Source: a virus (taxonomy: Duplodnaviria; Caudoviricetes). From it: a stretch of 24,227 nt of DNA. The first letter of the stretch is position 1; each line of letters begins with the position of its first letter. A program made the translations under genes and the position numbers. The notes beneath the pieces were generated by a model, which saw only the letters and a list, made by a program, of their open reading frames with translations, ran no database searches and was not told the DNA's origin. The DNA lies in the IMG/VR virus record IMGVR_UViG_3300032290_001595, positions 1-24,227 of that record; one strand, 5' to 3'. Positions 19,012 through 24,227 of the stretch are shown piece after piece.

Positions 19012-20928
19012 TTATTGTCTTATGCGAAGTCCATTAGTATAACTTGAAGTAACATCATATAGTGATGCCGAAACATCCGCGCCAGATGATACATCATCCG
19101 GTTTCATATTTAAAATACTCTTATTAATATCTAGTTGCAAATAAAGATCCTGTTTTCCGATAACATCATTCGAAACCGGAACAACCGCAATTTCAATAAT
19201 GGATTCTCCACCAACAGATTTAGATGTTGAAGTTATATTAATATCATTTAATAAAATTTCACCTTTTTCATAATCAATAGTTCCAACGTTAGATTTTTTA
19301 ACTGTTGGATTTGAAAAATCGGGGTTTGAAAACAAAAATAAAATTCCAGTTTTTTTATTGCTATTTGGAAGGTCTGCTAAGTAAACTGTTTCTGTAATAC
19401 CATTAACAGTAAATCCAGATGATTTAATGTTATAACCTTCCATAGTTTTAATATGAAAAGCATTTCCATAACAAATTTCATATTTGGCAAATTGATTTAG
19501 AGCAGCCCTTAAATCTCTTCTAATTTGAATTTTTGTAATATTAGATGTAACAGATTCGTGACTATCATCTACAATTTTTTGAAATTTACTATATTTAAAT
19601 CTAGATCCGTTTTTATTTAATTCAGTAGAATTAGCATATGAATTTATATTATTTGATATTAATGTTCTTACGAATTCTGAGTTAGGAGCAAGATTTGAAT
19701 TATAGTATGCAGTTATATCTACTTCCACATACAAATATTTTAAGTCTATAATTTCGGGTATAATTCCGGCAACAGCATATTTTCTTAATTCAGTTTTTAA
19801 ATTATCTTTTACAGAATTTGGAACAAATGGACCAAAAAATGGTTTAATACTAATAAAAACTTTTCCATACTGCGGAGGATTTAATTCTTCTCCACCGTAT
19901 ACGGATACTGATTGCGCCTCTGGATATATTTTTGGAATTAATGTAACATAATCAGAAGATGTAACCGCTCTATTTTGTGTTGAATAAAATGATGTAGCAT
20001 ATTTTTTTATTGAATCTACAGATTCAATTTCATTTCCACCTTGAGATGTGACATTTGTAGTTATCAGTGAAATACCAGTCGTTACTAAATTATTATTATT
20101 GTCTACGATTCTTCCATTAAAATTAAACGAGGAAATTCCATTACCATTTTCTCCATTAGTGGCAATGTATGAAACATCAATGTAATTTAAAGATTGAAGT
20201 TTTTCGCCAAATATTCCGTCACCAAAAATTAATTCATATCGTTGATCTTCGACTTCTTGTAAAAAGAAGACCCTTGACGATGAAGTAACATTAAACAAAC
20301 TATTAGAAAGAATAAACTTTCTTGAAGAAGTGCTCGATTGAGTATCCTTTATTGATACTGAAATCGTTGAAGTGTCAATATTAGCATTTTCAAGAATATA
20401 TCTTTGCGGTGGAGCAGGATTTTCTGACTGAACAATAAAATTTGCGGTTAAAAATGTTCCTTCATATATGACAACATTTTCAAAAAAAGCAATATTATTT
20501 ACTACAGGAACTGTTACATCACTTGGAATTGCAAAAGTATAACTTTCAGATCCAAAAACACTTGATGAAGTACAAACTAAACCTTTTTTAAGTGTTAATG
20601 TAAGTGGATTTGTTAGAAAATCTGTAGTATCTACAAAAAAAGAAATGGTTGCTCTTGCAGATGTTCTTGATCTTGGAATATATCCAACATTTCTAGCGAG
20701 AGATACTACGTTTTCTCTTAAAGTTGCACTATCAATGAATACCTCATTGCTAATCATATTAGCATTATATGAGGAAATGTATGTATTATATGCTAATACC
20801 TCAATTATTGTTGAAAGATTGGAACCTTCGAAATCATAATCAGTAAAATTCGAATTCGATCTAAGGTAATCCTTTATCGAAGTCTTAATTTGATCGAAAT
20901 CTAAGTTGGTAAAATTAACTAATGCCAT
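19012..20928 (-). CDS. gp6: Baseplate wedge subunit, T4 gp6-like
   Basis: 638 aa. NLDFDQIKTSIKDYLR, FTDYDFEGSNLS, NEVFIDSATLRENVVSLARNVGYIPRS, YELIFGDG, QNRAVTSSDY, PPQYGKVFISIKP and GTIDYEKGEI are hallmark gp6 motifs. TAATG stop/start overlap with gp25. Confidence 0.95.
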   Translation of the reverse strand: MALVNFTNLDFDQIKTSIKDYLRSNSNFTDYDFEGSNLSTIIEVLAYNTYISSYNANMISNEVFIDSATLRENVVSLARNVGYIPRSRTSARATISFFVDTTDFLTNPLTLTLKKGLVCTSSSVFGSESYTFAIPSDVTVPVVNNIAFFENVVIYEGTFLTANFIVQSENPAPPQRYILENANIDTSTISVSIKDTQSSTSSRKFILSNSLFNVTSSSRVFFLQEVEDQRYELIFGDGIFGEKLQSLNYIDVSYIATNGENGNGISSFNFNGRIVDNNNNLVTTGISLITTNVTSQGGNEIESVDSIKKYATSFYSTQNRAVTSSDYVTLIPKIYPEAQSVSVYGGEELNPPQYGKVFISIKPFFGPFVPNSVKDNLKTELRKYAVAGIIPEIIDLKYLYVEVDITAYYNSNLAPNSEFVRTLISNNINSYANSTELNKNGSRFKYSKFQKIVDDSHESVTSNITKIQIRRDLRAALNQFAKYEICYGNAFHIKTMEGYNIKSSGFTVNGITETVYLADLPNSNKKTGILFLFSNPDFSNPTVKKSNVGTIDYEKGEILLNDINITSTSKSVGGESIIEIAVVPVSNDVIGKQDLYLQLDINKSILNMKPDDVSSGADVSASLYDVTSSYTNGLRIRQ

Positions 20929-21329
20929 TATCGTGTTGGCTGTAGTGCAAATGATAATTGTTGAGGAAGTGCATCAATTCCTACTATAAAATAATTTACG
21001 GTAACATTAAAATTATTGTTATCATAATCTGGATCAATAATTACATCAATTAAATCTACTCTTGGTTCATAGTTTCTAATAGTATTTTCTATTTCATCTT
21101 TAATAACAGAAGCAGAAATATCATCAATATTTTCAAAAAGAGAGCGACCTACTTTAGAACCCAAATTTTGATTAAAAAATCTCTCTCCGGGAGAAGTAAG
21201 AACTAAATTACGAACAGAGCGGGCAATAGCATTTTCATTTTTTAACCCAATAATATCATAGTTAATTGGATTAACCTGAAATGACATACTTATGTCTTTA
21301 AATGCTTTACTTACCCGCTCTAGAGGCAT
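20928..21329 (-). CDS. gp25: Baseplate wedge subunit, T4 gp25-like (GPW/gp25 family)
   Basis: 133 aa. FKDISMSF, AIARSVRNLVLTSPGERFF, LFEN and IRNYEPRV are gp25-family motifs. Directly upstream of gp6. Confidence 0.95.
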   Translation of the reverse strand: MPLERVSKAFKDISMSFQVNPINYDIIGLKNENAIARSVRNLVLTSPGERFFNQNLGSKVGRSLFENIDDISASVIKDEIENTIRNYEPRVDLIDVIIDPDYDNNNFNVTVNYFIVGIDALPQQLSFALQPTR

Positions 21330-21348: not shown

Positions 21349-21609
21349 TTATTTATTCGGGTTTTTTAATTCGTACAGAGGTTCTGTTCCATATTCCCAA
21401 TCATCATAGTCATCATCATTACGAATTTGTGAATGAATCTCATTTTGAACATGAAAATCGTGTTTTTTTGGTGTCAAATCGTCATTTGTAATCTCACGAA
21501 GCATTTTTTGCTTGTCAACTTTGGATTCCCAACCATATTCACTAGACAAATACTGAGTTCCCCACTCATTTTTCATAAAATTTTGGTCTTTATCGACTTG
21601 TTTGGTCAT
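21349..21609 (-). CDS. Hypothetical acidic protein (cyanophage-type, upstream of gp25)
   Basis: 86 aa. Good SD (AGGAG, 21616-21620) 6 nt before the ATG. Acidic C-terminal DDDYDDWEYGTEP. Same strand as its neighbours. Confidence 0.8.
   Translation of the reverse strand: MTKQVDKDQNFMKNEWGTQYLSSEYGWESKVDKQKMLREITNDDLTPKKHDFHVQNEIHSQIRNDDDYDDWEYGTEPLYELKNPNK
21350..21356 (-). promoter_or_regulatory. Candidate late promoter ATAAATA upstream of gp25
   Basis: ATAAATA on the minus strand overlaps the stop codon of the 86-aa ORF and lies 20 nt before the gp25 ATG, the expected place for a late promoter of the baseplate operon. Confidence 0.65.
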
Positions 21610-22285
21610 TGTTTGCTCCTGATCCGTTAAAATCAGAACTTTTTACGGGGTTGCTATCCCGAATCTTCGTGATTTCGTACATAAAATCATCTGATGTTTC
21701 GATTTTGCGACGATTTTCGACTGAATATTCGGTTAAATCTATTTCATATCCAGGATTTTTAGTAATTCTATTCTTAGTCCATGCATCATCATACCATAAT
21801 ATTTTATTATTTGGATATGCATAGAAATTTCCATTATCCATCTTGAAAAAATGAGCACATTTATGCTCTGGTGTTTCACTAGAATTAGTATTTAATGTAG
21901 ATTTTGACTCCCATGACCAATCAAGAGTGAATAGATAGGTTCCTTCATTCTTTTCTCCGCGATAATTGATGAGTTCAGCACGTAAGTTAGACAATCTTGA
22001 ACGAACTTGAACATCAATATAAGGAGAAAAACAATCCCACCACATACACTCCTCTAATTCAGGAACTGGTGCATCGGGTTTCCAACAAAATGCATGTATT
22101 GGTCTACGAGTCCAATTCACACCATTCTCTAGGAACGCCTCAAAGAGTGGTACGTGCTTCTCCAAGGACGCTACAGAGTGTACGTCACATAAAGTTACCT
22201 CACCATGACCTTTTTTATGATTGTAAAGGAATTCATTACGAATATAACAAGTAATCGTTGGAAGATTATGATTTAAATATGCCAT
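21590..22285 (-). CDS. Conserved phage hypothetical protein
   Basis: 231 aa. The motifs MAYLNHNLP..CYIRNEFLY, WWDCFS, YLFTLDW and EHKCAH...DNGNFYAYPNNKILW resemble a family I recognise from aquatic phages. Function unknown. The last ~24 codons run through the RNA-like element and overlap the next ORF by 20 nt. Confidence 0.85.
   Translation of the reverse strand: MAYLNHNLPTITCYIRNEFLYNHKKGHGEVTLCDVHSVASLEKHVPLFEAFLENGVNWTRRPIHAFCWKPDAPVPELEECMWWDCFSPYIDVQVRSRLSNLRAELINYRGEKNEGTYLFTLDWSWESKSTLNTNSSETPEHKCAHFFKMDNGNFYAYPNNKILWYDDAWTKNRITKNPGYEIDLTEYSVENRRKIETSDDFMYEITKIRDSNPVKSSDFNGSGANNDQTSR
21615..21661 (-). ncRNA. Candidate cis-regulatory RNA structure in the leader of the 86-aa ORF
   Basis: Minus strand: CGGG-AUAGCAAC-CCCG-UAAAAA-GUUCUGAUUU-UAAC-GGAUCAGGAGC-AAACA-AUG. 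A GC hairpin, an A-rich linker, then a second hairpin whose 3' arm contains the SD. Folded by eye only. Confidence 0.45.
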
Positions 22286-22296
22286 AAGTTGATAAT

Positions 22297-22321
22297 AAAA
22301 AAGCAGGAATTTCTTCCTGCT
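22297..22321 (-). terminator. Rho-independent terminator
   Basis: Minus strand AGCAGGAA-GAAA-TTCCTGCT-TTTTT: a perfect 8-bp stem, a GNRA tetraloop and a U-tract, 9 nt after the stop of the 46-aa ORF. Confidence 0.85.
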
Positions 22322-22330
22322 CTATCTATA

Positions 22331-22471
22331 TTATTTACCTTGTCCCCTATACTTCTTCTTACGTCCATTACGAGAAGTTGCACTCAACAATGTACGAGGA
22401 GAACGTCCTTGACGAGTTTTCTTAGGTGCTCCTGGTTCAAACAGCACTTTATTACTTCCACCTTTTGCCAT
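22331..22471 (-). CDS. Small highly basic protein (46 aa), putative nucleic-acid binding
   Basis: Not in the track. My translation: MAKGGSNKVLFEPGAPKKTRQGRSPRTLLSATSRNGRKKKYRGQGK. Strong SD (GGAGG) upstream, ATG directly after the previous stop (TAAATG), and a terminator follows. Confidence 0.85.
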   Translation of the reverse strand: MAKGGSNKVLFEPGAPKKTRQGRSPRTLLSATSRNGRKKKYRGQGK

Positions 22472-23896: not shown

Positions 23897-24125
23897 TTTT
23901 TTCTTCCGGAATTTTTTGATTGATTTTTATTATAATCGCACTTTTTGATTTATGGAGATTTTCTGTGACACTTTGAAAACTGGTGAACTCTCCGGAAAAA
24001 TTTTATGAGATTGATAGTTCTCTCTCGATTTGTCACCTCTGTAGGTTAGGGTAGTTTGGGTTTTTATAAACGCAACGCCCGATATAAACAATAACAAATC
24101 AATCGCAAATACTGCCTATTCACGA

Positions 24126-24227
24126 CACTGACAATTCACGAATACACGTATAAACAATCACTGACAATTCACGAATACACGTATAAACAATCACTGACAA
24201 TTCACGAATACACGTATAAACAATCAC
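24126..24227. repeat. Perfect 33-bp tandem repeat, 3 full copies plus a partial copy, open at the edge
   Basis: Unit CACTGACAATTCACGAATACACGTATAAACAAT at 24126, 24159 and 24192, then CAC to the end of the window. No spacers between copies. Confidence 0.97.

Follow-up and report, generated by a model that had tools for sequence, protein, structure and literature searches.

Does a short stretch of leader RNA ahead of a small cyanophage gene work as a genetic switch, and what would set it? The question was raised by a sequence-only reading of one DNA stretch of 24,227 nucleotides (IMG/VR record IMGVR_UViG_3300032290_001595; here, the window), which had pointed to an H-type pseudoknot competing with a hairpin that buries a ribosome-binding site (RBS). 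The fragment originates from a T4-like cyanophage, with a gene set that includes gp25 and a PHROG 3704 gene, and its closest cultured match is Synechococcus phage DSL-LC02 (84.5%).

A pseudoknot candidate ahead of a small acidic ORF

The features of the window described here lie on the minus strand. The likely regulated gene is an 86-amino-acid (aa) acidic ORF (21349 to 21609) with relatives in PHROG 1414, a family of unknown function. It is followed by the baseplate wedge gene gp25 (20928 to 21329), which is the usual neighbor of the element and probably not its target. Upstream lies a 231-aa ORF of PHROG 3704 (21590 to 22285), one of many genes that occupy this position; as originally proposed, its frame runs through the element, and its stop codon falls 17 nt beyond the ATG of the small ORF. 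GenBank records call members of this family PurM, or phosphoribosylaminoimidazole synthetase, and PHROG 3704 calls them "ferredoxin"; neither Pfam nor NCBIfam yielded a match for the family, and both labels look unreliable. Farther upstream, a 46-aa Arg/Lys-rich ORF ending in YRGQGK (22331 to 22471), here called the basic-protein gene, encodes a candidate nucleic-acid-binding protein that matched nothing in Pfam or NCBIfam and whose gene precedes gp25 in HTVC008M and in the majority of the cyanophages examined. A late-promoter-like TAAATA sits at the end of the basic-protein gene (22332 to 22337), and a terminator-like hairpin with a U-run (22300 to 22323) separates it from the 231-aa ORF, an odd layout in which the promoter motif is followed by the hairpin within ∼10 nt (22300 to 22337). 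Two repeats mark the ends of the window: a VQP-repeat tract at the open end of its first ORF (3 to 130) and a short tandem repeat at its right end (24120 to 24227).

The candidate element, present as a single copy in the window, is a 28-nt pseudoknot core (21634 to 21661) and a putative aptamer. Stem P1 pairs CGGG (21661 to 21658) with CCCG (21649 to 21646) around the 8-nt loop AUAGCAAC (21657 to 21650), in which an A at 21657 forms L1 and a C at 21653 forms a variable or deletable bulge. The A-rich 6-nt loop L3 (UAAAAA, 21645 to 21640), whose last four A residues are invariant, leads to GUUCUG (21639 to 21634), the 3′ strand of helix P2. This is the switching strand, common to the knot and to the alternative fold: GUUCUG is complementary to the UAG plus AAC of the P1 loop, and it also takes part in an alternative hairpin (21639 to 21615), the predicted OFF state, which buries the AGGAG Shine-Dalgarno (SD) sequence (21620 to 21616) located 7 nt before the ATG at 21609. 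When the coordinates were rechecked, the stem, the loop, UAAAAA, GUUCUG, and both pairings all lay where they had first been placed.

ViennaRNA folds the window leader as P1 plus the SD hairpin at -12.9 kcal/mol (z score of -2.2; -2.9 for the hairpin alone). Eleven sites in the window fit this pairing geometry (6 on the plus and 5 on the minus strand), versus 1.65 per strand in mononucleotide shuffles. On this one sequence the knot is thus not beyond chance, and the sequence by itself proves little. We judge the element to be real because it is conserved and covaries in relatives.

Conservation of the core and linkage to the small gene

Loci were gathered through three versions of the downstream protein, taking the best 80 each of 596, 315, and 234 confirmed stretches. 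This yielded 238 distinct protein-anchored loci, of which four were incomplete at an edge and were left out. An 18-nt core, GAUAG-N(0,1)-AACC-N5-AAAAGUUCU, was found with 0 mismatches in 214 of the 234 usable loci. The remaining 20, which have the small gene without the motif, carry at least 5 mismatches to the core, and there are no intermediates; conservation among protein-anchored loci is all-or-none. The core is unchanged between marine and freshwater genera. The consensus of the full element reads N-G-N-G-A-U-R-G-N(0-1)-A-A-C-C-N-C-N-N-W-A-A-A-A-G-U-U-C-Y-R, and the window copy scores 50.6 bits against a model built from relatives. One decayed copy, in which P1 and the loop are kept and the 3′ strand is altered, precedes the same gene family.

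Twelve cultured phages opened from BLAST matches contain the motif, and in 11 of them the order is element, small ORF, and gp25. The exception is S-SCSM1, whose element, together with an unannotated ORF copy, sits in a metabolic-gene island among pstS, petE, PTOX, and gnd. Ten more phages, picked by gp25 alone, comprised three with both element and ORF, one with the ORF only, and six with neither. The S-SCSM1 layout and the gp25-anchored phages lead us to regard the element and the small ORF as a travelling unit. They also speak against the initial proposal that the element controls a baseplate operon, as does a second late-promoter-like TAAATA in front of gp25 (21350 to 21355), a motif that gp25 also has to itself in cultured phages.

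Beyond these loci, ∼3,200 stored IMG/VR stretches fit a loose form of the pattern, about nine in ten of them real in a sample. A pattern scan of GTDB gave 105 matches, of which 10 were real, all ahead of the same small ORF; these 10 lie on contigs of 0.6 to 42 kb in assemblies from unrelated taxa, and we tentatively take them to be mis-binned phage sequence. When 151 picocyanobacterial family genomes were searched with a model, with 48 candidates scored per genome, only two of these contigs and four weak matches lacking the core came up. Among the genomes searched, host chromosomes gave no credible copy of the element. One 200-kb record contains two modules of basic-protein gene, element, ORF, and gp25 with different platforms. 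This may be a duplication or a chimeric assembly, and we did not count it as multicopy because gp25 follows both copies and a chimera is possible.

Stem P1 covaries and helix P2 is probable

Protein-anchored, pattern-anchored, and cultured loci were pooled into 215 distinct leaders (338 instances). The second pair of P1 is Watson-Crick in every one of them (G-C 170, A-U 30, C-G 9, U-A 6), the closing G-C pair is invariant, and the fourth pair is intact in 195. Across 111 distinct cores, three of the four P1 pairs change on both sides and 97.7% of cells are paired; the covariation score of 0.213, versus 0.084 after shuffling (0 of 500 shuffles), is a comparison that the relatedness of the sequences inflates. 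Slid registers scored at most 0.068. The check for covariation suggested at the outset thus came out in favor of stem P1.

Helix P2 is a different case. In the 111-row alignment, five of the six pairs are constant; the search pattern had fixed P2 in about half of the rows, and the unbiased protein-anchored set agrees. Invariant pairs carry no covariation signal, so this constancy says nothing about pairing. The sole free position of the loop is the predicted bulge (C in 88 of 113, A in 12, G in 6, U in 5, and deleted in 2). A scan with P2 left free returned 120 matches, 108 of them motif-like, with the inner pair as A-U in 101, A·C in 4, G-C in 2, and G·U in 1. A targeted scan for G variants returned 103, of which 97 were gene-linked (G·U 85, G-C 10, other 2), the G-C forms stemming from about five distinct leader types. 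In a matched comparison, the partner base was C for 10 of 96 sequences with G and for 4 of 105 with A (Fisher P = 0.09, the sequences being related), a modest signal of compensation at the variable inner pair. Nine of the 215 leaders have a broken outer U-R pair. Targeted scans for junction-pair variants gave seven metagenome matches, all without the gene, and a viral scan gave four, of which the one real match was a bulge-less form with an extra base. In every direct count, 16 positions are invariant. The variation at the bulge, a geometry like that of the CPK-1 knot discussed below, and the A-U, G·U, and G-C states of the inner pair together support P2, a helix that, from sequence comparison, is probable rather than proven.

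A variable platform is predicted to compete with the knot

Folding predictions pair the P2 3′ strand with the platform downstream, at a probability of >0.5, in 213 of the 215 leaders; the mean pairing is 0.80, versus 0.51 with shuffled platforms. The platform sequence varies between leaders, and its complementarity is kept. Three types can be distinguished: a short hairpin over the SD sequence, as in the window; a stem closing just before the AUG; and a long hairpin that takes up the P1 3′ strand too (37 of 215 leaders). The long form covers 23 of the 30 leaders with an A-U second P1 pair, in which the P1 3′ strand reads as an anti-SD sequence. At least 5 U residues lie within 13 nt of the ATG in 21 of 215 leaders; the bulged long hairpin of S-CAM3, the one leader run through a terminator scanner, was not called.

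Freeing the knot strands is predicted to cost 7.5 kcal/mol on average (4.9 in the window), versus 3.6 for dinucleotide-shuffled platforms; the native cost exceeds the mean of the shuffles in 210 of 215 leaders and all 12 shuffles in 127. ViennaRNA handles no pseudoknots, and the ON state was approximated by constraints: opening the ribosome footprint takes 9.9 kcal/mol in the free ensemble versus 4.2 with the knot strands held apart, a drop that exceeds 1.4 kcal/mol in 214 of 215 leaders. In these models the default state of the leader is OFF, and we infer that the knot frees the RBS, giving ON polarity. As a duplex alone, P2 contributes a predicted -0.7 to -4.3 kcal/mol and is weak, so that something must stabilize the knot.

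By computation, a conserved candidate aptamer overlaps a variable and mutually exclusive expression platform. The competition first proposed, between an H-type knot and an RBS-burying hairpin, gains support from conservation, from P1 covariation, and from platform pairing in relatives, with both folds and their energies being model predictions. We consider it very probable that the element is a two-state RNA switch as such, whatever its trigger.

Promoter motif and upstream genes

The cyanophage late promoter has been described, in the part of the source available to us, as NATAAATA with TAAATA as its core (PMC2984593). Among 205 leaders with sufficient flanking sequence, 93 have TAAATA no more than 25 nt upstream of P1, versus 2 of 410 background windows; the spacing is 4 to 10 nt in 92, most commonly 6 nt. 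In the window, the motif lies 670 nt farther upstream, at the end of the basic-protein gene. This gene is directly upstream in 30 of 190 classified leaders, and TAAATA follows it in 25 of the 67 promoter-less leaders that show it; a scenario of gene insertion between promoter and element finds only partial support. In other phages, unrelated GC-rich hairpins with an A-run directly follow TAAATA, possibly as a general 5′-end hairpin of late transcripts. One metatranscriptome contains a 311-nt contig of a relative that spans the element at a depth of 5, too weak to use.

The genes that abut the element are diverse. With frames assigned automatically by the longest open frame, the upstream ORF ends ahead of P1 in 93 of the 205 leaders, ends within the core in 52, and reads through in 45; 15 leaders have none. 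The upstream peptides fall into 25 clusters and occupy all three frames. The element might be thought to stimulate frameshifting or read-through of the upstream ORF, or its conservation to be imposed by the overlapping protein, as the 231-aa ORF and the 45 relatives do read through in the only open frame. The upstream ORF fails to reach the element in 108 of 205 leaders, however, no slippery heptamer precedes the element in the window, and a one-base deletion in the loop is tolerated. The overlapping protein frame, raised earlier as a way in which the conservation could be explained away, does not account for it, since the upstream gene and frame vary freely. Such readings are already largely refuted, and we give them next to no credence.

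The fixed distance to TAAATA and the many different genes that abut the element would also suit a DNA element, that is, an operator or recombination site over the late-promoter start at which the hairpins are incidental. Against this, covariation of the P1 arms runs through four pair types, G·U is tolerated only on this strand, and several unrelated platform sequences keep complementarity; moreover, the element is always in sense orientation to the ORF, and in 214 of 215 leaders it lies 21 to 30 nt upstream of the ATG. We regard a DNA element as very unlikely.

A role for the RNA without any specific ligand deserves somewhat more weight and is still improbable. The knot could be a transient cotranscriptional fold or a protector of the late transcript's 5′ end, with the hairpin damping translation and temperature, Mg2+, or upstream ribosomes setting the balance. 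The 92 of 205 leaders with P1 4 to 10 nt after TAAATA would place the element at the RNA 5′ end, and upstream ribosomes enter the core in 97 of 205. T4 itself times late genes by ligand-free RBS hairpins, and those of e, soc, 49, and I-TevI likewise have a late promoter beside an SD-sequestering hairpin (PMC3014915, as far as its available sections go). There, however, the 5′ arm of the hairpin is missing from the late transcript, whereas here the promoter motif lies upstream of the complete hairpin and of an invariant knot. A structural role should also let P2 covary as P1 does; instead, 16 positions are invariant, and two junction positions resisted the targeted variant scans.

The small ORF and a picocyanobacterial microprotein

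Thirty-nine of 42 aligned members of the small-ORF family match PHROG 1414; the window's own protein falls below the threshold. The family forms 237 clusters at 50% identity, and the best 150 listed are 43 to 121 aa long. Behind the element, 93 ORFs combine an N-module with a CGG-GFDD tail and 85 combine it with an RND-DYDDWEYGTEP tail; 26 have the N-module only, 10 have the RND-DYDDWEYGTEP tail only, and 1 is incomplete. No single module is common to all motif-bearing ORFs, which makes autoregulation by the ORF product unlikely. Searches of Pfam, NCBIfam, and PDB gave no match for the protein, and its AlphaFold model, of low confidence (pLDDT 66, pTM 0.33), matched cyanophage homologues only.

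Residues 50 to 77 of the 86-aa ORF (21379 to 21462) form a host-like peptide that is near-identical to a picocyanobacterial microprotein; the window protein shares 23 of 30 residues with a Cyanobium copy. The peptide is encoded behind ∼44% of leaders, the window included. A profile search found a counterpart of the RND-DYDDWEYGTEP tail in 116 of 201 picocyanobacterial family genomes, once each with one exception, and all 12 host loci read encode a protein of 55 to 85 aa with the same peptide. The host gene is mostly convergent with an MFS gene and directly follows ychF in 4 of the 12 (names from translations); named homologues occur in Cyanobium, Vulcanococcus, and Synechococcus. A phylum-wide sample of 301 genomes gave five strong matches, all in genomes already in the family sample. 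The knot was not seen in the host microprotein leaders read, and the other C-terminal type had no host match in 101 genomes. The host microprotein has the core HDF..QKELH.KIRNDPDYDDWEYGTEPLP and is conserved, unannotated, and single-copy; we found no family, structure, or paper for it.

Comparison with known RNA elements

The element had been likened to preQ1 class I (preQ1-I) aptamers. Like preQ1-I RNAs of types I to III, described as H-type knots of ∼30 nt at the RBS (PMC11625349), it has a G closing P1, AC before the P1 3′ strand, and an A-rich L3; G5, A12, and C13 are invariant in all 111 cores. This likeness, with features as in types II and III according to the same source, would fit a divergent preQ1-I riboswitch or a variant binding another guanine derivative at the C before P1. 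The residues that read the ligand are missing, however. The base after P1, in L1, is A in 113 of 113 sequences and not the U6 that accessible accounts give for preQ1-I, and GUU rather than an L3 adenine precedes the P2 cytosine, so that no adenine adjoins P2. The would-be specificity C faces an invariant cis G of the tail, whose GUU, complementary to AAC, would fill the pocket; L1 is 1 to 2 nt long; and the logic predicted here is ON, in place of the OFF logic of preQ1-I. In the Rfam check recommended earlier, no preQ1 family matched at E values up to 10 for the window region or up to 5 for 10 related loci, and no other relevant match to the element appeared. QueC and TGT were found in 0 of 5 motif-bearing phages, and the downstream gene belongs to PHROG 1414 and is not a queuosine gene. 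We rejected the preQ1-I class on the missing U and A, the missing queuosine genes, and the Rfam result; even a divergent variant is hardly credible.

The element is closer in geometry to the CPK-1 knot, which is described as having an S2 of 6 to 7 bp, an L1 of 1 to 2 nt, and no interhelix loop (PMC3835772, in part): it has six possible P2 pairs with one bulge, its L1 is a single A, and AAC abuts P1. Stacked stems and a place in the leader of a T4-type phage gene are shared with CPK-1 and with the T2-T4 gene 32 operator (PMC3835772 and PMC3014915, available sections), without any sequence tie to CPK-1. The parallel to T4 gene 32, also drawn at the outset, does not carry over to regulation. The gp32 operators of T4 and RB69 are reported to diverge in sequence, whereas the cyanophage core keeps its sequence (PMC535899, in part); the downstream gene here is an unrelated small gene and not one for a protein that binds single-stranded DNA (SSB); and the RBS of gene 32 lies under an unstructured A+U tract, unlike the structured RBS with a competing hairpin here. 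The polarity is opposite as well, in that the gene 32 operator represses and the knot here is predicted to free the RBS.

The HMP-PP (thiS) element, to judge from the consulted portion of PMC6478431, is likewise an ON switch with a small, possibly knotted aptamer overlapping a repressing stem, and the long-hairpin, U-run variants of the present element would share its terminator-embedded layout. It differs in that no Rfam sequence match and no thiamin genes accompany our element, and most leaders here look translational. Cyanophages are also reported to carry glnA, wcaG, and manA RNAs (PMC9964418, in part), which resemble our element as structured cis elements in T4-like cyanophages; S-CREM1 has all three and this motif. 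Those RNAs are Rfam families at other S-CREM1 positions, whereas our element has no host copy in the genomes searched. The available part of the S-CREM1 paper (PMC9964418) lists four other RNAs at other coordinates, and the motif is absent from its table.

Candidate triggers and a proposed mechanism

If the leader is a two-state switch, its trigger could be a small molecule or a protein. The constancy of the core across genera favors a ligand that does not evolve, for example an ion, a metabolite, or a highly conserved host factor; with a co-evolving phage protein the RNA should drift, as the T4 and RB69 gp32 operators do. The gene context of the element yields no clue to the ligand. A metabolite riboswitch class without host-chromosome copies is unusual, and the phage-only distribution of the element counts against a metabolite and fits a phage protein.

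The same two-state RNA could accordingly be set by a protein, with a phage late or conserved host protein as translational activator or antiterminator. T4-type phages do control leaders with proteins, including a gp32-bound pseudoknot (PMC3014915, in part). One candidate is the Arg/Lys-rich product of 22331 to 22471, whose gene is the immediate upstream neighbor in the 30 of 190 leaders noted above; yet the same protein occurs in the motif-less phages S-RIM12, S-RIM2, S-CAM22, and HTVC008M. The core shows no clade-specific drift, unlike gp32 operators (PMC535899, in part), the gene 32 precedent represses where the knot here would activate, and the downstream protein offers no module that all motif-bearing ORFs possess. 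We rate a protein trigger as doubtful, though a serious alternative.

Our leading and still tentative explanation, held at somewhat less than even confidence, is a riboswitch-like ON switch triggered by a small host molecule or ion; both the dependence on a ligand and its type are inferred. Unbound, the P2 3′ strand would pair downstream and hide the RBS of the small gene. Binding of the trigger, most likely a small host molecule, would lock the compact pseudoknot and free the RBS. Transcription from a late promoter would, in many phages, begin at P1 or immediately upstream of it, and in minority lineages, where the OFF hairpin is long and carries a U-run, the same knot may block termination too. 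In the window, where a gene lies between promoter motif and element, ribosomes reading through may reset the fold at each passage. The output would be the small acidic protein, the host-like peptide version of which would probably compete for a host target, or tune it, in late infection.

Novelty and significance

The element is not catalogued in Rfam 15. Full-text searches with the motif letters (as DNA and RNA) and with the peptide returned nothing relevant, and topic searches found no description of it, in both cases in the literature outside subscription journals. It may be among the 8,495 unnamed candidates that Fremin et al. (2023) predicted from IMG/VR, as stated in the accessible part of their report (PMC10690425). 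We regard it as a real, uncatalogued, phage-restricted switch candidate.

Phage riboswitches have been described as rare, and the reported ones belong to bacterial classes such as glnA (PMC9004378); the element described here is abundant and very small. It is possible, and we put it no higher, that it represents a phage-confined riboswitch class, in which a 28-nt knot at the beginning of a late transcript reads a host metabolite or ion, works with interchangeable translational and termination platforms, and releases a host-mimicking microprotein. Cultured carriers with growable hosts (S-CREM1, S-CAM3, S-RSM4, Syn30, and S-SCSM1) make ligand hunting directly feasible, and the identity of the trigger would reveal which aspect of its host a lytic cyanophage tracks in late infection. 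Through the regulated gene, a phage family whose function is unknown is also linked to a single-copy microprotein, so far unstudied, of Synechococcus and Cyanobium.
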